Positions 19,343 to 33,809 of a stretch of DNA of 64,000 bases are shown here, piece by piece; positions within the stretch are counted from its first letter, which is position 1, and each line of letters starts with the position of its first letter. Source of the DNA: Escherichia phage vB_EcoM_REC; sequence record OM386667.1. One strand, 5' to 3'. The notes beneath the pieces were generated by a model, which saw nothing but the letters and a program-made list of their open reading frames with translations, ran no database searches and had not been told where the DNA came from. The translations under genes were made by a program, and so were the position numbers.

Positions 19343-21496
19343 ATGAAACAAGCTATATTTACTGTCACGCGAGACAAGAGAGTAAATGCGAGTTCATTTA
19401 ACTACACGACTGTTGATGGAACAGCAGTCGCTGGTAGAGATTATATTGCAAAATCGGGAACACTTGTGTTCCCTGATGATGCTGATTCTGCTACCATTGT
19501 GGTTGAAGTATTTGAACGACCAAAGAACTCAATAGATCTTAACTTCTCCCTCCAAGTTTCAGGGATTAGTCAAAATAACATGATGGTTGAAACGACCATC
19601 AACTGTATTATAACTACGATTCAAGAAAATACTACTCCAATAACTTGGACTACAAAAGACGTTAAAATGTTCTCTCCTATGTATTGGACAATAGATTCTC
19701 AAGCAACGGAAAGTTGTTCTATTGTATCTCATGGAGACTCTTTTACTGCAAGATTTGTAAACAGAACAACAGCAGGTTTGGCAGGGGTTATCTGGAGCAC
19801 AGTTGACAAATATGACCATAAAGGTGTTGGGTATTTACCCCACACAGATTTAAGTTCAGAGAAACTTTGGTTTAAAATGGAAGTTAGTCAAAACATGCCA
19901 GGTTTTAAAGAAGAACCTTTGGTGCCAACTTTGACTGTAACTCTCTTGGATAAAAGTGTCCACTATGTTAGTTTAGGATTTTATGCTTCAGATATTTCAG
20001 AAGATGGTAAAACAGCTACAATCAAACTAGATTTTGGTAATATCTTCTCTGGTCCTAATAATGATATTCCTTTGGACATGAGTGCTGTAGATAATATTTT
20101 CTTCTCTTTGATTACAGCAAGGTATGAAGAAATAGAAGAGATTGTACCTATTGATAGTCAAGAGGCTTGGTTTACTTTCACTCTTCTTGAACCTACTTCT
20201 GGTTATAGTATGATGAAAGTCAGTAACCTTGTCCAGCCTGAACATGATATTCGCATGTGCACATCTTATGACGATATGTATAACCTGACTCCAGAGAGAG
20301 TTATTTATAATACATATGCGCTAGGTTATCGTGGAATGATTAACCATTACAACGGAATGTCTCACTATTATGAGTTCTCATGGAACGGAACATCTTGGGC
20401 TTTAAATAGATCTGTCTTCCTGAATCCAGCTACAGAAGCTTGGCTAAATAGTTTCCATTCTATAGCGAACGAGAAGGGTTACACAATAATGAACTCTTTA
20501 AGTTTTGAGTTGATGAGCACAGTTTGTCCTGTAGAATGGGTCCAGCATGATTGGAACGATGCTCTTGCAGCAACAGGGTATGAGCCTCCTAGTTACGTGT
20601 TGTCTCCAACTATTGACGAAGGTATGAAATATTTGCAAAATGTTATTAATAAAATAGCATCTATTTCGCAAGCTAATAATATTCCAGTTGTCATTCAAAT
20701 TGGTGAGCCTTGGTGGTGGTATAATACAGCGAGTAAAATGCCTTGTATATACGATTACACTACTAAACTAGCATTCAACACAGAAACAGGTTTATTTGCA
20801 CAAGATGTAGGAACAATAGATAATTATAAAACAGGAACACCGTTTGACGAATACTATGCATTTTTGTCTCGTAAACTAGGATTAAGAGTTGCAAAGTTTG
20901 CAACAGATACTAGATTAGCCTATCCTGGAGCTAAAGTTACATTATTACCATTTGTGCCATCCATTTTAGGTAACGGTATGATGGAGTTTGTTAACTTCCC
21001 TAAAGATTATTATATCCCAGAAAACTTCGACTTTTATTGTTCAGAGTGTTATGACTGGTTGTTGGAAGGTAAGATGGAAAAATCTTTTGACGCTATCACA
21101 ATACCTAATGAACAATTAGGTTTTAGTTATGATAAGATACATTATCTTGCAGGTTTTGTTCCAGATGCTACTCTTGCACCTTTGTATAGCTTTGATCCTG
21201 AATCAAACTACCGCACGTATCTTTGGAAAATGATTATAGGTAACATAGTGTTGAACGCCAATAAGTTCAATGGACTTACACAATATATATGGGCCTATCC
21301 TCAAATAATGCACGATTCTATCACGGTAGTTAATTCTCAATCCCAAGTTTTCTATATGGGTAACGTGCCTTTGAACGTTTATTTACAGGATATCACTCTT
21401 AAACAGGTAAATGTTGAGATTGCCACCATAAGTGGAATTACATTAGCCACTAAATCTGGAGAAGATTTAGTAACAACACAAAAATTTTATATATAG
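19343..21496 (+). CDS. large virion protein with Calx-beta-like N-terminal domain
   Basis: 717 aa; N-terminus TVDGTAVAGRDYIAKSGTLVF...ATIVVEV resembles a Calx-beta motif. Confidence 0.45.
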   Translation: MKQAIFTVTRDKRVNASSFNYTTVDGTAVAGRDYIAKSGTLVFPDDADSATIVVEVFERPKNSIDLNFSLQVSGISQNNMMVETTINCIITTIQENTTPITWTTKDVKMFSPMYWTIDSQATESCSIVSHGDSFTARFVNRTTAGLAGVIWSTVDKYDHKGVGYLPHTDLSSEKLWFKMEVSQNMPGFKEEPLVPTLTVTLLDKSVHYVSLGFYASDISEDGKTATIKLDFGNIFSGPNNDIPLDMSAVDNIFFSLITARYEEIEEIVPIDSQEAWFTFTLLEPTSGYSMMKVSNLVQPEHDIRMCTSYDDMYNLTPERVIYNTYALGYRGMINHYNGMSHYYEFSWNGTSWALNRSVFLNPATEAWLNSFHSIANEKGYTIMNSLSFELMSTVCPVEWVQHDWNDALAATGYEPPSYVLSPTIDEGMKYLQNVINKIASISQANNIPVVIQIGEPWWWYNTASKMPCIYDYTTKLAFNTETGLFAQDVGTIDNYKTGTPFDEYYAFLSRKLGLRVAKFATDTRLAYPGAKVTLLPFVPSILGNGMMEFVNFPKDYYIPENFDFYCSECYDWLLEGKMEKSFDAITIPNEQLGFSYDKIHYLAGFVPDATLAPLYSFDPESNYRTYLWKMIIGNIVLNANKFNGLTQYIWAYPQIMHDSITVVNSQSQVFYMGNVPLNVYLQDITLKQVNVEIATISGITLATKSGEDLVTTQKFYI

Positions 21497-21504
21497 GAGT
21501 AAAA

Positions 21505-24270
21505 ATGTCAACTACAATTACTAATTTACCCGAAACATCAAAAGTTAATGGTTCTGATTACCTGGTTTTAGACCAACCTGATAAGACTGTTAAAAGCACA
21601 GTTTCCAACTTTCTTACTGACACTGGGGTGGTTTTAGCCACCCAGTTAAAAGATATTTCTGGAGCTACCAAGTACCCAGAACTTCAAATGTCACGCTGGA
21701 GAGATGAAGGTGATCCTAGAGGATGGGGAGCAGTAGGTGACGGAGCAACAGACGATACCAATGCCATAACACAGCTTCTTGCTGCTATGCCTGATGGATG
21801 GATTATTGATGGGCGTAATCTCACTTTCAAGGTTACAACACTACCAGATATAAGCAAGTTTAAAAACGCTGCTTTTGTTTACGAGCGTATTGTTGGACAA
21901 CCCCTTACTTATGTATCTGAAGGTTTCTTCGATGGAAATCTGACAAAGATTACGGATACACCATTTTACAATGCTTGGACGCAAGATAAGACGTTTGTTT
22001 ATGACAATGTTATATATGCACCATTTATGGCTGGCGAACGTCATGGTGTACAAAACCTCCATGTAGCGTGGGTTAAATCAGGAGATGATGGACAAACTTG
22101 GTCTATGCCAGAATGGTTAACTCCAATTCATCCTGATTATAATGCCTCTTCAGCAAACAAAGTTAACTATCATTGTATGAGTATGGGCGTATGTGGTAAT
22201 CGCCTATATGCAGTCATCGAAACCCGTTATTTATCTAACATGCGATTGAAGAAAGCAGAACTTTGGTCACGTCCAATGCCTTATTATAGAAGGCCAACTG
22301 GAGGTATAACAATTAGTTCTGGGTCTACTACGGCGACGATTGTTTTAGAAAAGCATGGTCTTAAAGTTGGAGATGCTGTTAACTTTTCCAATTCAGGTGC
22401 AACTGGTGTATCTGGAAATATGACTGTTGCATCTGTAATTAACAAGGATACATTTACTGTTACATTAGCGAGTGCTGCCACATCTAATATAGATAATACA
22501 GGAACTACTTGGCATTTTGGAACACGTTTCTGGGATAGCCCTTGGGAAATTACAGAATTACCAGATGTTGCCTATTCTACTAATGCAGACTTATGTGTTA
22601 CAGAAACCCATAGTTTTACAGTTATAGATGATGATAATTACACTTTTGCTGTGGGTTATCACAATGGTGATGTTTCCCCAAGAAGATTAGGTATTTTGTA
22701 TTTCAATAATGCTTACTCTGACCCAAGTTCTTTTACTCGTAGAACAATTAGTCAAGAATATGCTGACAATGCAGCAGAACCCTGCATTAAATATTATGAT
22801 GGAATTTTATATTTAACTACTAGGGGTACTTCAACTTCTGCTGCTGGTTCTACATTAGCAATGAGTGCTGACCTTGGAGAAAACTGGAATTACTTAAGAT
22901 TTCCTAACAACGTTCATCATACAAACCTACCATTTGCAAAAGTTGGTAACTACCTTTATATCTTTGGTACAGAACGTTCATTTGGAGAATGGGAAGGAGA
23001 AGAACTAGATAATAGATATAAAGGTACGTATCCTCGAACGTTTATGTGCAAGATTAATGTATCTGCATGGCCTGCATCTTTATCCGATGTTCAATGGTTT
23101 AATATCACCGATCAGATGTATCAAGGGCATATTGTTAATTCTGCATGTGGTGTTGGTTCGGTATGTGTTAAAGATGGTTGGTTATATTATATCTTTGGAG
23201 GCGAAGATTTCTTATCTCCTTGGTCTATTGGGGATAATAGTAAAAAATTATGGTACAAGCACGATGGTCATCCAGCCGATTTATATAGCTATAGACTAAA
23301 GATTACCGAACATGATTTTGTATCACGTGATTTCAAATATGGAGCTACGCCAAACCGTACATTGCCTGTATCTATGGGTACAGATGGGGTAAGGCATGTC
23401 TCAGCCCCTGTAACTTTTGATAATGATGTGCAAGTACACTCTTTAACAGTTACTGGTCTTGAGCATGATGGGACACAACAATCTGCCGTTAGAATAAAAT
23501 TAGATGGTGATTATGGGGTTGTTGCAAAAAATGTCCCAATAAAAAATCCTTCTGAACAGCGACTAATCTTATGTGGAGGAGAAACTCCTTACGTTACTGA
23601 TGGATCGCTATTACAACTATATGGTTCAAACCATACGTATCCAAACAGAGCAGTTTTATATGCCCCAGGAGGAGCATATACCCAAAATAATTTCATGCCA
23701 TATTTAGATGGACAAGTTGCATTAGGTGGTGCATCTAACAGATGGTCAGAAGTGTACGCATCTACAGGAACCATTAATACTTCAGATGGAACATTAAAAA
23801 CTAAACCTACAGAGATTGAAGATATTTTACTGAAAGCGTGGGAAGATATTCATGTAATCTCTTATCAATGGCTGAGTGCTATCGCGGAGAAAGGAGATTC
23901 TGCGCGTATTCATTTTGGTGTTATAGCTCAAGATGTAAGAGATATTCTGATTAATTATGGTTTAATGGATGAAAATAGCACTGATTGTAAGTATGCTTTT
24001 CTGTGTTATGATGAATACCCTGCTATGTACGATAGTGTTGTTACGGGACAAAAAGAAATCCCTTTATTTGATGATGAAGGGAATGTTGTAATTGATGAAG
24101 AAGGTAATCCAGTAACAATCGTAGAAGATGTTGTAGAAACTATCGAAATAATTCCAGCAGGATCGCGATGGGGTATCCGCGCTGACCAAATGTTTTTTAT
24201 TGAGATGGCTTATCAACGTAAAAAGTTAAAAGCTCTTGAAGAAAGACTTGCAACCCTGGAAAGTAAATAA
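21505..24270 (+). CDS. tailspike, sialidase-like, with C-terminal intramolecular chaperone (endosialidase-type)
   Basis: 921 aa; Asp-box motifs SGDDGQTW and SADLGENW; GWGAVGDGATDDTNAI; C-terminal SDGTLKTK...GVIAQDV matches the self-cleaving chaperone domain of endosialidase-type spikes. Confidence 0.7.
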   Translation: MSTTITNLPETSKVNGSDYLVLDQPDKTVKSTVSNFLTDTGVVLATQLKDISGATKYPELQMSRWRDEGDPRGWGAVGDGATDDTNAITQLLAAMPDGWIIDGRNLTFKVTTLPDISKFKNAAFVYERIVGQPLTYVSEGFFDGNLTKITDTPFYNAWTQDKTFVYDNVIYAPFMAGERHGVQNLHVAWVKSGDDGQTWSMPEWLTPIHPDYNASSANKVNYHCMSMGVCGNRLYAVIETRYLSNMRLKKAELWSRPMPYYRRPTGGITISSGSTTATIVLEKHGLKVGDAVNFSNSGATGVSGNMTVASVINKDTFTVTLASAATSNIDNTGTTWHFGTRFWDSPWEITELPDVAYSTNADLCVTETHSFTVIDDDNYTFAVGYHNGDVSPRRLGILYFNNAYSDPSSFTRRTISQEYADNAAEPCIKYYDGILYLTTRGTSTSAAGSTLAMSADLGENWNYLRFPNNVHHTNLPFAKVGNYLYIFGTERSFGEWEGEELDNRYKGTYPRTFMCKINVSAWPASLSDVQWFNITDQMYQGHIVNSACGVGSVCVKDGWLYYIFGGEDFLSPWSIGDNSKKLWYKHDGHPADLYSYRLKITEHDFVSRDFKYGATPNRTLPVSMGTDGVRHVSAPVTFDNDVQVHSLTVTGLEHDGTQQSAVRIKLDGDYGVVAKNVPIKNPSEQRLILCGGETPYVTDGSLLQLYGSNHTYPNRAVLYAPGGAYTQNNFMPYLDGQVALGGASNRWSEVYASTGTINTSDGTLKTKPTEIEDILLKAWEDIHVISYQWLSAIAEKGDSARIHFGVIAQDVRDILINYGLMDENSTDCKYAFLCYDEYPAMYDSVVTGQKEIPLFDDEGNVVIDEEGNPVTIVEDVVETIEIIPAGSRWGIRADQMFFIEMAYQRKKLKALEERLATLESK

Positions 24271-24295
24271 TACCGCTTAGGCGGTATTTCAATCT
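24269..24295 (+). terminator. rho-independent terminator after tailspike gene
   Basis: Stem TACCGC/GCGGTA, loop TTAG, then TTT. Confidence 0.6.
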
Positions 24296-28666: not shown

Positions 28667-31600
28667 ATGGCAACATTCCCAACATATCCAGCAACGTCTC
28701 TCGAACAGGGCGTAGACCTGGTTATTTTCTCATCTAACCAACTCCATGATGTTATTAATGGAAGTGCTACAGAGAGTATTGAAACAGAATCAGGGTTGAT
28801 ACCAACCCTGAGAAAATCCCTTGTTGACAACTTTTTCTTTAAAAGCCCATTGGATTGGGCGCAAGGCACAAACGAAACAGTTTTTAACCAACTACGTTAT
28901 TTTCAGAATGGGGTATTGAGCGGTTATTATTATGCTCCTAATGCTACATTGGTAAACCCAATTCCTATGCAAGGGACTCCAGTAGGAGATAACAACTGGG
29001 TATTGTGGGGACTGAAGACAGAACAACTAGCAACAGAAGTCACCCCTTGGGTATATTCTGGTGCAACTGGTTATGAAACAGTAATCAGTCCTCCCTACAT
29101 CTTTGATAGTGCTATTGTTACAATCAATGGTGTTATTCAGGTTCTGGGAGAAGCTTTCCGCATAGAAGATAGTAAAATCATTTTATCTGAACCTTTGGGA
29201 CATGATCCTGCAACAGGACTGCCAAACAAGCTTTTTGCCTATATTGGTAAAATCGTAGCTTCCGCAGATACAGATCCTAACTTAGAAAACCGTCTTGTCA
29301 GTTTAGAAACAAAAACTGAAGAACTGACAGAAAACATGGATAAAGTACCTTTACAAACTATTGCTCGTAAATACGGTTTGTTGGATGACGAAGTAGCTTA
29401 CGCAACAGCGGGTCAATCATTAACAGGGATTAAAGCTCTGTATGATCCGGTAGCACAATCTTCCTACACATTGCCTCCTAACATCACAGGGACTTTAACA
29501 TCTTTGTCTGTTTCTGGAGTAATGACTTATTCTGGCGGATCTGTAGATCTTTCTGCATTAGCTGTTGAACGTGGACAGTTTGTTCATTTGCCTACAAGCT
29601 TTGGTAATAATGTAACTCTGACAGCTAAAAATCAGACGATTGGGCGTGGCGCTGGTCGCTATCGTTGGGCGGGAAGTTTACCAAAAAGTATTTTAGCTTC
29701 TGATACATTGGAAACAAGTGGTGGATTAGGTCCAAATGCATGGGTTCTAACTAATACAGAAGGACTGTTAACCCCTCGTGGTGGAACATACAACGATTTA
29801 TTCGATGTTGTCCGCTTATCAGAATTTGCTAACAATACAACTACCTATACCACACCAGAAGCAGCTTTCCAGGCGGCACTGTTAGCAGCAAAAGCTTCGA
29901 AAAGTAAGATTCTCGACGCTTACGGTTGTGATATGACTTTCACGACAAGCTCTTTTGATATTCAAGATATCACTTTGCGTGGGGGTGTGTTCCGTGGTCA
30001 ACGCGATTATCGTGTGCAAAATGCTACAGTAGAAGGCACAACTTTCCGTAACTCTCGTGTTATGTATTGGGGTGGTGCTGTGCGCATGTTCGATTGTTTG
30101 TGGGACGGTGCTCCTCGCGCAGGTCAAGTTGGTAGCTTGGTATTCCAAGGAAACCCAATATCAGGTACTTTTGAAATTGATAATTGTACTTTTAAAAACG
30201 GGTTATATGGCATCCTTCAACAAGGAACAGGGGAACCAGTAACACGCGGTGTCTTCCGTAACCTTACCTTCATGGACATGCAAGGTGATGCAATAGAACT
30301 GAACGTCATCAATAAACATTATGATGATGGTTGTGTGATTGAGAATATTTACCTGTCTAATATTGATGGGACTAACGCTCCTATTCCTCTGTCCAACTGG
30401 GGTATCGGTATTGGTGTGGCTGGTAAAGGACCATATGGTTACGGAATTCCTGATGATCAATATTGCAAGAATATTACAATTCGTAACGTTTTTGCAAAAC
30501 GTTGTCGTCAGATTGTCCACGTAGAAGTTGGTCGTAATATTTCTATCGAAAACATTCATGGCGATCCAGATCAAACTGTATCTGTTGGGACAGGTTTGGC
30601 AACTGGCGCAGTTGTAATGTATGGAAGTAAAGATTTTACGATTGATGGTGTTTACGGAGAGCCTAAAACAGACGGTAGCACACTTGCAAGTAATATCCGT
30701 ATGATTTATTTGGAGTGGGGAACTAACGCAGTTCTGGATGAAGAGGGCAATCCGGTAGTTCCGGCACAGGGCAGACCTTCAAACCCATGCTTTAACTATT
30801 CTGTTCGTAACATTCACACCAAAACTGGGCGTGTTTTTGCAGGAGTTTCCGCTGGGCCAGGTTATGAAAACAGAGTCAGCTTTGAGAATATCCATTGTGC
30901 TGCGTTGCAGTTGTTCGGTGTAGCTTCTTGGCTTTCAATGTCTAACATCACCTGTAATATCTTTGATTGTGTTGGTCAACCTGAATCTGGTCCAGGGACA
31001 TTTTATGATGGATTCTTCCGTAGAGAAAAATCTGTTCTTGAGATGGTTAACGTAAACTGTTACCCAGATGGCAAGACTATGGTTACTGGTCGCCCACAGT
31101 GGAGCCGTTGCCGTTACTCTGATATTCATCGTGTCAACTGTAATGTTGAAGCTAATATGTATACCAATATCGCAGGTGGTATTGGAGCTATTGTAGGGAC
31201 AACTGGCAAAGTTTATTACTTAGAGCCTAACCCTAGCCGAAACATTGATGGGATGCATTTCCCAACAGGGAAGGAGTTTGACAAAGGGGATATGATAGTC
31301 AAAGCGGATAATACGTTCTTCCTTGTAACAACAAGTGGGGCATACATTCCAGATATCCCAGCTTTCGGTATTCGAGCTACACAAGCAGGAGATACCTTCC
31401 TGACACAGAACTTGACTCCTAATGGGACAGCAACAAACGCTTCTTGGTTGTATCACTATCCTCTGTCAGCAGGAACACGTATCCGTATTCCTGGTGCTGG
31501 TGTAGGTGGAGCAGATTTGGACACAGTTATTACTCGTGCACCTTATCAAGATAATGATACGTGGACTAACCCAGTTAAAATAGACATTGCAGATCCAATT

Positions 31601-31720
31601 GTAACGCCTACGAGTGCTGGAGTTAGAATCAAAACCATACCTAACGATTCTAGTAATGTTTCTGTAGGTAATACTGCGGTTATTCGCCCAACACCAGTGG
31701 TAGATGTGCCAACAACCTAA
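28667..31720 (+). CDS. tailspike with right-handed beta-helix, putative polysaccharide depolymerase
   Basis: 1017 aa; repeating motifs NxTxxN, NITIRNV, ISIENIHGD typical of pectate-lyase-fold beta-helices. Confidence 0.6.
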   Translation: MATFPTYPATSLEQGVDLVIFSSNQLHDVINGSATESIETESGLIPTLRKSLVDNFFFKSPLDWAQGTNETVFNQLRYFQNGVLSGYYYAPNATLVNPIPMQGTPVGDNNWVLWGLKTEQLATEVTPWVYSGATGYETVISPPYIFDSAIVTINGVIQVLGEAFRIEDSKIILSEPLGHDPATGLPNKLFAYIGKIVASADTDPNLENRLVSLETKTEELTENMDKVPLQTIARKYGLLDDEVAYATAGQSLTGIKALYDPVAQSSYTLPPNITGTLTSLSVSGVMTYSGGSVDLSALAVERGQFVHLPTSFGNNVTLTAKNQTIGRGAGRYRWAGSLPKSILASDTLETSGGLGPNAWVLTNTEGLLTPRGGTYNDLFDVVRLSEFANNTTTYTTPEAAFQAALLAAKASKSKILDAYGCDMTFTTSSFDIQDITLRGGVFRGQRDYRVQNATVEGTTFRNSRVMYWGGAVRMFDCLWDGAPRAGQVGSLVFQGNPISGTFEIDNCTFKNGLYGILQQGTGEPVTRGVFRNLTFMDMQGDAIELNVINKHYDDGCVIENIYLSNIDGTNAPIPLSNWGIGIGVAGKGPYGYGIPDDQYCKNITIRNVFAKRCRQIVHVEVGRNISIENIHGDPDQTVSVGTGLATGAVVMYGSKDFTIDGVYGEPKTDGSTLASNIRMIYLEWGTNAVLDEEGNPVVPAQGRPSNPCFNYSVRNIHTKTGRVFAGVSAGPGYENRVSFENIHCAALQLFGVASWLSMSNITCNIFDCVGQPESGPGTFYDGFFRREKSVLEMVNVNCYPDGKTMVTGRPQWSRCRYSDIHRVNCNVEANMYTNIAGGIGAIVGTTGKVYYLEPNPSRNIDGMHFPTGKEFDKGDMIVKADNTFFLVTTSGAYIPDIPAFGIRATQAGDTFLTQNLTPNGTATNASWLYHYPLSAGTRIRIPGAGVGGADLDTVITRAPYQDNDTWTNPVKIDIADPIVTPTSAGVRIKTIPNDSSNVSVGNTAVIRPTPVVDVPTT

Positions 31721-31784: not shown

Positions 31785-33809
31785 ATGAATTTAACAAGAC
31801 CTAATAGTGCGATAGCCGATCTAGTAGAAGCTACTTATCGAAAACGTCGCAGTTTTGAGGCAGGTTTTACATTACGTAATTCCCGTGAAGTTTTGCTGTT
31901 AGCGGCAGAAGGGAATTATTACCAATGGAAAGGAACTTTTCCTAAAGTAGTTCCAGCAAACTCTACGCCAGCCACCACAGGTGGTATTTCTTCCCTTGCA
32001 TGGCAAAGTGTTGGGACCGCTGATGATATAGCAATTATCAATGCCAAGTTTACGGCAATGCAGCAACAGATTGATGATCTGTCGGAAACAATACCTGAAG
32101 CTGGTAAATCGGCTTATCAGATCGCACTTGATAATGGTTTTGTTGGAACAGAAGCACAATGGCTTGCTTCTTTGAAAGGGGATACTGGTGCTCAACTTAA
32201 TATTAAAGGATCATTAGCAAGCACTAGTGAACTACCATCTACAGGTAACGTAGCAGGTGATGGTTATATTGTAGGAGATGTAATCTACGCTTGGGATGGG
32301 GCTGTTTGGAAACTTATCTCTTCTCTTGGGCCAGAAGGGAAATCAGCTTACGAGGTATGGTTAGCAGATGGTAATACAGGATCTGTTTATGACTTTCTTG
32401 CCTCTATAAAAGGTGATAAAGGAGACGTTGGTCCTACAGGTCCACAGGGTGCACCTGGTGTCAACGCTAATGGTTTTGATTACCGTGGAGATTTGCCTTC
32501 TACAAGTAACTTACCACAACCTAACTCTGAAAACGTAAGCCAAGCTTATTCTATTAATGGTAATCTTTATGTCTCTAATGGGACAGCTTGGGTCAACATG
32601 GGTAATATTGTTGGTCCTCAAGGTCCACAAGGTGAGGCAGGTAAAGACGGTCTAGATGGAACAGATGGAGACGAAGGGAAATCTGCATATCAAAGTTGGC
32701 TGGATGCTGGTAATGAAGGGACAGAAGTAGATTTTATTGCCTCACTTAAAGGTCCAAAAGGAGACAAGGGTGATCAAGGAGAGCGAGGTCCACAAGGTGA
32801 ACTAGGTCCACAAGGATCAGTGGGTGCAACAGGATCAGGTTTAGAGATTATCGGGGTTCTGAACAGCGAAGCTGAACTTCCTCCTACTGGAGAAGTAGGT
32901 GATGCATATAAAATTAATAATGATTTGTATGTTTGGGTTCAAGATGCTACAGAATGGATGAATGTAGGCAGTCTTGGAGGAACATCAATTACAGCTAAAG
33001 GTCATGTTCCGAACAGTGAAGCTCTCCCTGTTTATAATAACTACGGTGATGCCTATTTAACTGAAGACACTAGTAATCTTTACATCTATACCTACGATCA
33101 AGACACCAATTCCGCATCTTTTGTTGACATGGGAAGTATTAAAGGCGACAAAGGTGAAAAAGGGGATAAAGGAGATAAGGGTGATCCTGGAACAAACGGA
33201 ACCAACGGTACTGATGGGACCAACGGTAAGGACGGCGCACAGTGGTTTGTAGCAACAACTAATCCAGTCACAGGAGACGGTGTTATCAATGATTACGCCT
33301 TCAATACTACCACTGGAGCAGTATTTAAGAAAACAGATTCTTCTACGTGGACACTTATAGGAACTCTTCCTAGTATACCAGAAGCCCCTCAAGACGGCTT
33401 GACGTATGGTCGTTCTGATGGAAACTGGATCGAAATATCAGGATCAGATCCTACGGAAGCTATAACACCAACTAGAGTTACAGCAGGTTTCATGGAACTT
33501 GAAACAACTACTGCCAACTCTGGAGCATCTTGGACTCCTTCTGGAACTTCCAATATGTATGTTGTTACAGTAACTGACGCTCTGACAGTTGGAGCATGGC
33601 CTGGTGTCACTGGCTCTACAAAACCTAAAGCGTTTTCAGCAATGATTTATTTGATTCAAGATACAACGGGACACACGGTTACACTAGATGCGTCTTATGG
33701 AGCACTAAATGATACAGAAATAGCAACTACTGCTAACGCAGTAACAATTTTGCAATTAACGTATCCTGGTGTGGGTGATATCGTGGACATGGTTGTTGTA
33801 ACACGATAA
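31785..33809 (+). CDS. tail fiber with collagen-like Gly-X-Y repeats
   Basis: 674 aa; GPTGPQGAPG, GPQGPQGEAGKDGLDGTDGDEG, KGDKGEKGDKGDKGDPGTNGTNGTDGTNGKDG; three copies of GKSAYxxWLxxG...FxASLKG module. Confidence 0.65.
   Translation: MNLTRPNSAIADLVEATYRKRRSFEAGFTLRNSREVLLLAAEGNYYQWKGTFPKVVPANSTPATTGGISSLAWQSVGTADDIAIINAKFTAMQQQIDDLSETIPEAGKSAYQIALDNGFVGTEAQWLASLKGDTGAQLNIKGSLASTSELPSTGNVAGDGYIVGDVIYAWDGAVWKLISSLGPEGKSAYEVWLADGNTGSVYDFLASIKGDKGDVGPTGPQGAPGVNANGFDYRGDLPSTSNLPQPNSENVSQAYSINGNLYVSNGTAWVNMGNIVGPQGPQGEAGKDGLDGTDGDEGKSAYQSWLDAGNEGTEVDFIASLKGPKGDKGDQGERGPQGELGPQGSVGATGSGLEIIGVLNSEAELPPTGEVGDAYKINNDLYVWVQDATEWMNVGSLGGTSITAKGHVPNSEALPVYNNYGDAYLTEDTSNLYIYTYDQDTNSASFVDMGSIKGDKGEKGDKGDKGDPGTNGTNGTDGTNGKDGAQWFVATTNPVTGDGVINDYAFNTTTGAVFKKTDSSTWTLIGTLPSIPEAPQDGLTYGRSDGNWIEISGSDPTEAITPTRVTAGFMELETTTANSGASWTPSGTSNMYVVTVTDALTVGAWPGVTGSTKPKAFSAMIYLIQDTTGHTVTLDASYGALNDTEIATTANAVTILQLTYPGVGDIVDMVVVTR
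32100..33240 (+). repeat. collagen-like triplet repeats interleaved with three KSAY...ASLKG modules (approximate bounds)
   Basis: Read directly from translation of 31785-33809. Confidence 0.6.

Follow-up and report, generated by a model that had tools for sequence, protein, structure and literature searches.

The endosialidase tailspike gene of the phi92-like phage ESCO5 and its predicted self-cleaving chaperone domain

A 921-residue reading frame in the analysed window, a 64,000-nucleotide stretch of Escherichia phage vB_EcoM_REC (OM386667.1), almost certainly codes for the tailspike endosialidase of ESCO5, a phi92-like myovirus; the product is a presumed autocleaved trimer that would strip the K1/K92 capsule from the host. 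The gene is the published endosialidase tailspike gene of ESCO5, the phage as which the window was identified, and is already known and correctly annotated: in megablast it is 100% identical at the DNA level to positions 83032-85797 of KX664695.3, and its product is identical to ESCO5_00098 (AOT23219.1), annotated as endo-N-acetylneuraminidase and described in the 2017 ESCO5 genome announcement. The protein also matches the tail spike family phrog_1171 with an E value of 2e-300, and no sequence evidence against this explanation was found. Bacteriophage endosialidases (endo-N-acetylneuraminidases) are classified by CAZy as GH58. The gene carries little weight as a discovery, as the 97%-identical phi92 protein and that of K1F are already known in function, structure and maturation. 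Its practical value is that the enzyme explains the good adsorption of ESCO5 to K1 avian-pathogenic and extraintestinal E. coli, and it bears on phage therapy and on endosialidases as reagents for polysialic acid (polySia) removal. It further provides a positive control for the original prediction, which, working from raw sequence, picked out both the Asp-boxes and the self-cleaving chaperone and missed the cleavage site by no more than one residue.

The reading frame and all of the motifs quoted in that prediction were found by the ORF list and a motif search exactly where it had located them (Table 1); they include NTSDGTLKTK at aa 758-767, which contains Ser760, GWGAVGDGATDD at aa 73-84, and ARIHFGVIAQDV at aa 800-811. 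The ribosome-binding site overlaps the TAG stop codon (21494-21496) of the upstream gene, and an AGGAG motif is annotated at the same place before the start of phi92 gene 143. The hairpin at the end of the gene is possibly a weak terminator or an RNA-stability element; a scan for terminator-like sites called it on the minus strand only, its plus-strand T-tract falling just under the threshold, and the scan returned 3 sites against 1.9 expected between positions 21000 and 24800. A promoter scan of the same interval was uninformative because the count found (15) equalled that expected (15.0). Small minus-strand ORFs inside the gene, which lie antisense to a coding region under purifying selection and lack support of their own, were dismissed.

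Table 1. Features of the endosialidase tailspike gene and its surroundings (positions in the window)
Feature	Position	Strand	Basis or remark
Endosialidase (endo-N-acetylneuraminidase) tailspike precursor	21505..24270	+	ATG start, 921 aa; ORF list
AGGAG ribosome-binding site	21495..21499	+	5 nt before ATG; sequence read
N-terminal virion-anchor module, aa 1-75 (putative)	21505..21729	+	Outside all crystal structures; attachment function inferred
Endosialidase N-terminal extension domain, aa 76-142	21730..21930	+	PF12218, E 1e-33
Six-bladed beta-propeller catalytic domain, aa 143-600	21931..23304	+	PF12217, E 1e-212
Asp-box 1, SGDDGQTW, aa 192-199	22078..22101	+	Invariant in ESCO5, phi92, K1F and K1E
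Beta-barrel domain inserted in propeller, aa 259-341	22279..22527	+	PF12195, E 4e-38
Asp-box 2, SADLGENW, aa 454-461	22864..22887	+	Aligned with SRDIGQTW of K1F and K1E
Stalk ("tail-spike") domain, aa 603-759	23311..23781	+	PF12219, E 1e-62
Predicted scissile bond, Thr759-Ser760 codons	23779..23784	+	Homology
C-terminal intramolecular chaperone/autoprotease domain (Peptidase S74), aa 760-921	23782..24267	+	PF13884, 47.8 bits (cut-off 22)
8-bp hairpin AATACCGC-TTAG-GCGGTATT	24269..24288	none	Overlaps stop codon of tailspike gene

Pfam searches recovered every domain of an endosialidase, namely the N-terminal extension, the propeller, the inserted beta-barrel, the stalk, and the S74 chaperone, all five far above their cut-offs. 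The propeller profile (cut-off 24 bits) matched with 706 bits over positions 1-366 of 367, the inserted barrel with 129.7 bits over its full length (1-83 of 83), and the triple-beta-helix stalk with 211 bits. Over aa 75-759 the protein shares ~97% of its residues with the crystallized phi92 endosialidase (PDB 4HIZ, 1574 bits), and its N-terminal extension domain is 100% identical to that of phi92. The K1F structures 1V0E and 3GVL matched with E values of ~1e-237, and the K1F structure of stalk and chaperone (3GW6) aligns with aa 663-921, to the last residue, with an E value of 2e-70. The near-identity to one crystal structure and the match to the chaperone structure answer the question of the fold, and the sialidase-type tailspike originally proposed is borne out by its four endosialidase domains and by 4HIZ. 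A generic bacterial BNR sialidase was rejected, as PF13088, at 15 bits, stayed below its cut-off of 31.4; the protein is therefore counted among the phage endosialidases and not among the exosialidases.

The protein contains exactly two matches to the Asp-box pattern S-x-D-x-G-x-x-W, and among 20,000 shuffles of its sequence at least two matches appeared once and at least one match in 173. The two motifs are not incidental, because both align with the Asp-boxes of the K1F and K1E endosialidases. Alignment maps H180, R393, E425, R440, and R491 onto endoNF residues H350, R549, E581, R596, and R647, which have been named as catalytic (PMC12632334), and all five are conserved, as are the second-shell residues Q160, D161, H369, S370, K429, and N545. 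Apart from K410, whose counterpart is Asn in ESCO5 and phi92 alike, all residues to which the K1F scan ascribes a catalytic or critical role are unchanged.

The S74 domain lies at the extreme C-terminus of the protein, directly after the triple-beta-helix stalk, and its Pfam match spans aa 760-819; the whole domain is 96.9% identical to endoN92-CTD of phi92 and 50% identical to that of K1F. The residues of the cleavage mechanism (D735, R746, T759, S760, and K765), the first two of which lie in the stalk domain, are invariant in four endosialidases, and their spacing of 11/13/1/5 is that of D1239, R1250, T1263, S1264, and K1269 in T5 pb1. The prediction of a self-cleaving C-terminal chaperone is thus upheld by the Peptidase_S74 match, the alignment with 3GW6, and the conservation of all five residues. 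Cleavage had been placed after Ser760; the site was right to within one residue, but homology puts the bond before the serine. In 4HIZ, the last residue of the chain is the Thr that aligns with T759, and the GenBank mat_peptide of phi92 ends at codon 756 (Thr), with the CTD starting at Ser757. In T5 pb1, the Thr1263-Ser1264 bond has been described as cut after the trimer has folded, and K1F is said to behave in the same way (T5 pb1 paper). The scissile bond is most likely Thr759-Ser760, and the predicted mature C-terminus is Thr759. With this bond, the released fragment would comprise 162 aa (18.4 kDa) rather than 161 aa (18.3 kDa); both calculated masses agree with the fragment of about 18 kDa that was anticipated.

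Among characterized systems, EndoN92 (phi92 gp143, 4HIZ, CBY99572.1) is the closest. It occupies the same slot between gp142 and gp144 homologs, has the same five-domain architecture, and shares 97% protein identity and 96.8% DNA identity (gene 143), with identical catalytic and cleavage residues. The ESCO5 protein differs from it by 27 substitutions and a three-residue insertion (N213-A214-S215) in a propeller loop, and carries V697 in the stalk in place of T694; ESCO5 is a Phapecoctavirus, whereas phi92 is a Justusliebigvirus. EndoNF (K1F gp17; 1V0E, 3GVL, 3GW6) shares the propeller, barrel, stalk, and chaperone, with all catalytic and cleavage residues conserved. It is 54% identical overall, the propeller reaching 58% and the chaperone 50%. 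In contrast, identity falls to 38% in the stalk, and the N-terminus of the 1064-residue protein is a long, T7-gp17-like part for capsid binding, where ESCO5 has an anchor of ~75 residues; K1F itself is a podovirus that carries one type of spike only. EndoNE (K1E gp47) has the same catalytic core, Asp-boxes, and Ser/Lys dyad, with a 57% identical propeller, but its short N-terminus binds via an adaptor protein, and its chaperone, also the shorter of the two, shares just 21% identity. In the L-shaped tail fibre pb1 of T5 (4UW8), the chaperone is likewise an S74 domain, with identical Asp/Arg/Thr/Ser/Lys spacing. The neck appendage of GA-1 (3GUD) has the same intramolecular chaperone domain, and eukaryotic MYRF is reported to share it as its ICA domain. 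In sequence these domains resemble the ESCO5 chaperone only remotely, 4UW8 matching with a phmmer E value of 2e-7. In T5 pb1, GA-1, and MYRF, unlike in the endosialidases, the S74 domain is joined to unrelated receptor-binding or DNA-binding domains.

Three other explanations were weighed against an active endosialidase of the phi92 type. If the Asp-boxes and the GDGxTDD segment were incidental, the protein could be some other depolymerase, for example a spike of the pectate-lyase fold directed at a non-sialic capsule; a weak match to Pect-lyase_RHGA_epim (PF12708) at aa 74-93 points that way, with 13.5 bits against a cut-off of 27. This reading has a negligible probability and was refuted by the endosialidase-specific Pfam matches (with the E values of Table 1), by the identity to the solved endosialidase 4HIZ, and by the alignment of both Asp-boxes with those of K1F and K1E. 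A pectate-lyase module was also rejected for the segment itself (GWGAVGDGATDD), as PF12708 is below threshold there and most of the segment falls inside the PF12218 domain. It is scarcely more plausible that the spike is catalytically dead and acts as an adhesin that binds polysialic acid, like the engineered inactive endosialidases used as polySia lectins. Nothing specific speaks for such an adhesin, the five active-site residues and the second-shell residues are conserved, and the 97%-identical phi92 enzyme has been reported to be active. Moreover, the codon differences from phi92 comprise 48 synonymous and 27 nonsynonymous changes, an excess of synonymous changes that indicates purifying selection.

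An unlikely, though less remote, explanation is that the protein is a genuine endosialidase whose Phapecoctavirus allele has a substrate profile other than that of endoN92, having lost its alpha-2,9 activity, changed its tolerance of the O-acetylated K1 polymer, or altered its processivity. The 27 substitutions and the NAS insertion mean that linkage preference and processivity could differ from those of endoN92, which is reportedly non-processive with low alpha-2,9 activity. The insertion and most of the substitutions recur in each of the five Phapecoctavirus copies compared, which makes phi92 the outlier. A second polySia-binding site in the K1F stalk is formed by R837, S848, and Q853. The corresponding residues in ESCO5 are R686, V697, and L702, of which only the Arg is kept, and position 697, Val here, is Thr in phi92. 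R837 and Q853 have no occurrences in the K1F DMS preprint (PMC12632334). Against a changed profile stand the 97% overall identity to the phi92 enzyme, the near-complete conservation of the catalytic and critical residues of the K1F scan, and the isolation and propagation of ESCO5 on K1 strains.

The preferred reading, an active endosialidase tailspike, leads to a mechanism in which trimer formation, cleavage, enzyme activity, linkage preference, and position in the virion would all follow the homologs. The 921-aa precursor would be made first, and its 162-aa C-terminal chaperone would drive the chains to trimerize and the triple-beta-helix stalk to fold. When the stalk has reached its correct fold, Arg746 of a neighbouring chain would form an oxyanion site together with Asp735 and Thr759, and Lys765 would activate Ser760, leading to the cutting of the Thr759-Ser760 bond and the release of the 18.4-kDa chaperone. 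The mature 84-kDa subunits would then constitute a mushroom-shaped trimer, in which the six-bladed beta-propeller, through H180, R393, E425, R440, and R491, would hydrolyse alpha-2,8-linked polysialic acid and, by analogy with phi92, probably alpha-2,9 linkages weakly. The phi92 gp143 protein has been described as degrading both alpha-2,8 and alpha-2,9 polysialic acid (PMC13450770); the GenBank note on phi92 gene 143 likewise reports polysialic-acid cleavage, and the mature peptides endoN92* and endoN92-CTD are annotated there on an experimental basis. The first ~54-75 residues would anchor the trimer at the periphery of the baseplate, where it would be one among several distinct spikes and fibres, and stripping of the K1/K92 capsule would allow other fibres to reach their outer-membrane receptor. 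Such stripping would extend the host range to K1 strains, and the enzyme would be dispensable on non-K1 hosts.

This role is consistent with the biology of ESCO5, whose isolation host was an O2:K1 strain and which was also propagated on strains of type K1 (ESCO5 paper). On an O18:K1 strain, it adsorbs ~6-fold faster than ESCO13, a phage without the gene (3.0e-9 vs 4.8e-10 ml/min), and both phages also grow on K1-negative strains (ESCO5 paper). The K1/K92-type E. coli host that had been proposed from the sequence agrees with the isolation strain and with the closest characterized homolog, which comes from phi92, a phage of E. coli K92. The suggestion that polysialic acid is one receptor holds in part. 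Polysialic acid serves as a barrier of the capsule or as a primary site of attachment, dealt with by one spike among several; it is not the sole or obligatory receptor, since growth on K1-negative strains makes the capsule a barrier that the enzyme would remove.

The N-terminal part of the gene is shared far more widely than the rest: in 67 of 80 megablast records the match is confined to the first 5-19% of the gene, in most cases to its first 151-248 nt. What different spikes conserve is a core of aa 1-54, common to those in the same slot of KKE7M and VEcB: the KKE7M spike is 96% identical over these residues and then diverges, and the VEcB spike is 68% identical over aa 1-123. The gene occupies the gene-143 slot of the multivalent adsorption apparatus of the Stephanstirmvirinae (phi92-like phages). 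Gene order is collinear in ESCO5 and phi92, with the endosialidase gene between homologs of gp141/gp142 and the gp144-gp147 baseplate and fibre genes. The upstream gp141 homolog (958 aa) has no known domain, the gp142 homolog (717 aa) has a Calx-beta domain and a "non-contractile tail sheath" TIM barrel, and Baseplate_J, DUF2612, and Caudo_TAP domains are encoded downstream. In the phi92 cryo-EM paper, gp143 was put at the tip of fiber I on the basis of low-resolution density (PMC13450770). There is a small chance that either the Phapecoctavirus allele, with its NAS insertion at 213-215 and V697, differs from phi92 in linkage preference or processivity, or the 54-residue anchor docks on an arm formed by the gp141/gp142 homologs. 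Neither a specificity altered relative to phi92 nor such docking would alter what the gene is; docking, if true, would assign the hitherto unassigned arm of the L-shaped fiber I of the 2026 phi92 cryo-EM study.

A single uninterrupted, ATG-started frame encodes the 921-residue protein, exactly as originally predicted, and a megablast search against phage genomes returned 100% identity over 2766 nt to a gene of Escherichia phage ESCO5 (KX664695.3, 83032-85797) annotated as 'endo-N-acetylneuraminidase'; its product is referred to here as the ESCO5 protein. For ESCO5, public records already cover the gene, its annotation and its likely role, and phi92, K1F and T5 provide an established mechanism; the original reading of the gene is correct, and the finding is already known. 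Full-length copies with 96.8-99.5% identity occur in nepoznato, phAPEC8, MirsaeidiM_Esher1, PNJ1809-36, ASO2A, ECO340P2, MRostami-2023b and phi92. Window positions 9505-36270 differ from the ESCO5 record at 1 base in 26,766, at 32817, outside the endosialidase gene; this difference (T in the window, C in KX664695.3) falls in the gp151-like spike gene.

ESCO5 is a 149-kb myovirus (Stephanstirmvirinae, genus Phapecoctavirus) isolated on E. coli BEN5202 from the caecal content of chicken. Its host strain is O2:K1 (PMC5374246), in agreement with the K1-type E. coli host that had been proposed. The endo-N-acetylneuraminidase gene is common to ESCO5 and phAPEC8 and absent from ESCO13, and adsorption to an O18:K1 strain proceeds at 3.0e-9 ml/min for ESCO5 versus 4.8e-10 ml/min for ESCO13; the ESCO5 protein and phi92 EndoN92 share 96.7% identity (PMC5374246). 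The phi92 ortholog, gene 143, is annotated in its sequence record with two mature-peptide features: endoN92*, described as the mature tailspike and as a depolymerase of alpha-2,8 and alternating alpha-2,8/2,9 polysialic acid, and endoN92-CTD, an intramolecular triple-beta-helix chaperone.

The ESCO5 protein contains five Pfam domains in order, each far above its curated cut-off, and is assigned to phrog_1171 'tail spike protein' (E 2e-300). The phi92 enzyme structure 4HIZ ('Endosialidase') aligns with residues 75-759 without large gaps (1574 bits, ~97% identity), the K1F endosialidase structures 1V0E and 3GVJ/K/L match at E about 1e-237, and 3GW6, comprising the K1F stalk and chaperone, aligns with residues 663-921, including the last residue (E 2e-70). 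Further chaperone matches are 4UW8, from the L-shaped fibre of T5, and 3GUD, from the neck appendage of GA-1. At the sequence level, these structure-database matches settle the endosialidase fold, and both the sialidase-type tailspike and the C-terminal S74 chaperone of the original prediction are borne out. Every defining feature that can be tested from sequence, whether of phage endosialidases or of the S74 intramolecular chaperone, is present in the protein. Neither BNR_2, the generic sialidase model, nor a pectate-lyase-like model touching the GDGxTDD segment reached the Pfam threshold.

All the motifs quoted originally, including GWGAVGDGATDD and ARIHFGVIAQDV, are present in the protein. 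The Asp-box core S-x-D-x-G-x-x-W has exactly two matches in the 921 residues; among 20,000 shuffled versions, at least one core appeared in 173 and two in only 1. In an alignment of the ESCO5 protein with phi92 gp143, K1F gp17 (endoNF) and K1E gp47, identities to the ESCO5 protein are 97%, 54% and 49%, respectively; by domain, K1F gp17 reaches 58% for the propeller, 50% for the chaperone and 38% for the stalk. In a deep mutational scan of the K1F endosialidase, the key catalytic residues named were H350, R549, E581, R596 and R647, and the second-shell positions named as critical were Q330, D331, H527, S528, K585 and N699 (PMC12632334). The catalytic residues are all kept in the ESCO5 protein (H180, R393, E425, R440 and R491), as are the second-shell residues (Q160, D161, H369, S370, K429 and N545); the sole differing position is K1F K410, where ESCO5 and phi92 both carry Asn.

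Features of the endosialidase gene, its product and neighbouring genes
Feature	Position	Strand	Basis or remark
AGGAG ribosome-binding site	21495-21499	+	5 nt before ATG; overlaps upstream gene's TAG
Endosialidase gene	21505-24270	+	ORF list
Anchor, aa 1-54	21505-21666	+	Compared with same-slot spikes, L010:4001-6070 and L009:4001-6250
GWGAVGDGATDD	aa 73-84		Motif search of protein
End_N_terminal	aa 76-142		Pfam E 1e-33
End_beta_propel	aa 143-600		Pfam E 1e-212; profile positions 1-366 of 367
Asp-box 1, SGDDGQTW	aa 192-199		Motif search of protein
N213-A214-S215 insertion	22141-22149		Asn-Ala-Ser
End_beta_barrel, inserted	aa 259-341		Pfam E 4e-38
Asp-box 2, SADLGENW	aa 454-461		Motif search of protein
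End_tail_spike	aa 603-759		Pfam E 1e-62
NTSDGTLKTK, including Ser760	aa 758-767		Motif search of protein
Peptidase_S74 'chaperone of endosialidase'	aa 760-819		Pfam 47.8 bits, cut-off 22
ARIHFGVIAQDV	aa 800-811		Motif search of protein
Hairpin AATACCGC-TTAG-GCGGTATT	24269-24288		Perfect, 8 bp; overlaps endosialidase stop codon
Upstream genes			Tape measure, hub, central spike, gp141 and gp142 homologs
gp141 homolog, 958 aa	16458-19334	+	Annotated 'tail fiber'
gp142 homolog, 717 aa	19343-21496	+	Calx-beta aa 4-82; NCTSP_N aa 107-292
Downstream wedge and fibre genes			Baseplate_J-like wedge protein, DUF2612 protein, gp147-like fibre, tail-fibre assembly protein
Downstream spike genes			Colanic-acid-degrading spike; another spike with Tail_spike_N domain and collagen repeats
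Colanic-acid-degrading spike homolog	28667-31720	+	1017 aa
gp151-like spike	31785-33809	+	N-terminal Tail_spike_N; collagen triple-helix repeat aa 454-485

For chaperone release, a mechanism has been proposed in T5 pb1: R1250 of the neighbouring chain lies between D1239 and T1263, the oxyanion hole forms only with the triple beta-helix folded correctly, and S1264 is activated by K1269 to cut the Thr1263-Ser1264 bond (PMC4690869). These residues correspond to D886, R897, T910, S911 and K916 in endoNF and to D735, R746, T759, S760 and K765 in the ESCO5 protein; the five columns are invariant in the four-protein alignment, with the 11/13/1/5 spacing of T5 pb1. Cleavage had been predicted after Ser760. 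However, in the phi92 GenBank entry the mature peptide has Thr (codon 756) as its last residue and the CTD starts at Ser757, the deposited 4HIZ and 1V0E chains stop at the Thr aligned with T759, the Pfam S74 model begins at residue 760, and the Thr-Ser cut of T5 pb1 is also reported for K1F (PMC4690869), all of which place the cut before the serine. The scissile bond is therefore most likely Thr759-Ser760, with a small doubt left because the Ser of phi29 has been modelled on the mature protein (PMC4690869). Cleavage there would yield an 84-kDa mature chain (residues 1 or 2 to 759) and a 162-residue, 18.4-kDa fragment, so that the fragment of about 18 kDa is retained from the original prediction, whereas the position after the serine is not.

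Relative to phi92 endoN92, the ESCO5 protein has 27 substitutions and a 3-residue insertion, located in a propeller loop directly after the conserved HPDY. The insertion and most substitutions recur in each of the five Phapecoctavirus copies compared (ESCO5, nepoznato, phAPEC8, PNJ1809-36 and ECO340P2), which makes the crystallised phi92 protein the outlier allele, and the Phapecoctavirus allele may differ from endoN92 in specificity. The differing codons, 48 synonymous and 27 nonsynonymous, are consistent with purifying selection on the gene. In the K1F stalk, R837, S848 and Q853 presumably form a second polySia-binding site; the corresponding residues are R686, V697 and L702 in ESCO5 and R683, T694 and L699 in phi92, only the Arg being kept. 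EndoN92 is reportedly non-processive, and the loss of two stalk-site residues would fit this behaviour.

In 67 of the 80 megablast records the match is confined to the initial 5-19% of the gene, mostly the first 151-248 nt. The same-slot gene of KKE7M is 96% identical over residues 1-54, beyond which it encodes an unrelated spike bearing a Tail_spike_N domain; that of VEcB is 68% identical over residues 1-123, differs in its central part and ends with its own S74 chaperone. These short 5' matches and the two spikes point to the first ~54 residues as a conserved anchor, onto which the sequence comparison shows receptor-binding modules to be swapped as cassettes, the usual tailspike pattern.

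The gene sits in a baseplate and fibre block that is a multivalent adsorption apparatus as described for phi92. In a 2026 cryo-EM study of phi92, three fibre types, with six copies each, are carried on the wedge protein gp145; trimeric gp143 was inferred from low-resolution density to be the distal tip of the L-shaped fiber I, and capsule hydrolysis by fiber I was proposed to enable irreversible binding of fiber III (gp147) (PMC13450770). By analogy with these homologs, from which we infer trimerisation, cleavage, activity and virion position, the ESCO5 protein would fold as a trimer assisted by the chaperone, which would then be released by autoproteolysis at Thr759|Ser760; six trimers would be shown on the baseplate via the N-terminal anchor, and polysialic acid would be endo-hydrolysed on K1/K92 hosts. 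The endosialidase is dispensable on unencapsulated hosts, which fits the growth of ESCO5 on K1-negative strains (PMC5374246) and the isolation of nepoznato, with its 99.5%-identical copy, on K-12 MG1655.

The gp141 homolog, a large structural protein encoded immediately before the spike genes, has phrog_2871 'tail protein' as its sole match, and neither Pfam nor PDB sequences gave a match. The gp142 homolog contains a 'non-contractile tail sheath' TIM barrel (residues 299-658, E 1e-79), a label it bears though the phage tail is contractile, and has PDB matches to 9lc0_M 'Gp64' (E 5e-30) and 9lc0_I. This gp142 homolog may account for unassigned fibre density or may be a further glycan-active module. 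Neither homolog is mentioned in the phi92 cryo-EM study, and it might be speculated that the two form the arm of fiber I, which was left without assignment there (PMC13450770). The colanic-acid-degrading spike of ESCO5 is longer than phi92 gp150 (804 aa, 2415 nt), and its Tail_spike_N domain does not start until residue 302, pointing to an additional module at the N-terminus. Because its plus-strand T-tract is weak, the hairpin at the end of the endosialidase gene was called by the scan on the minus strand alone. The GC skew turns from positive to negative near window position ~36000, consistent with plus-strand structural genes giving way to genes on the minus strand.
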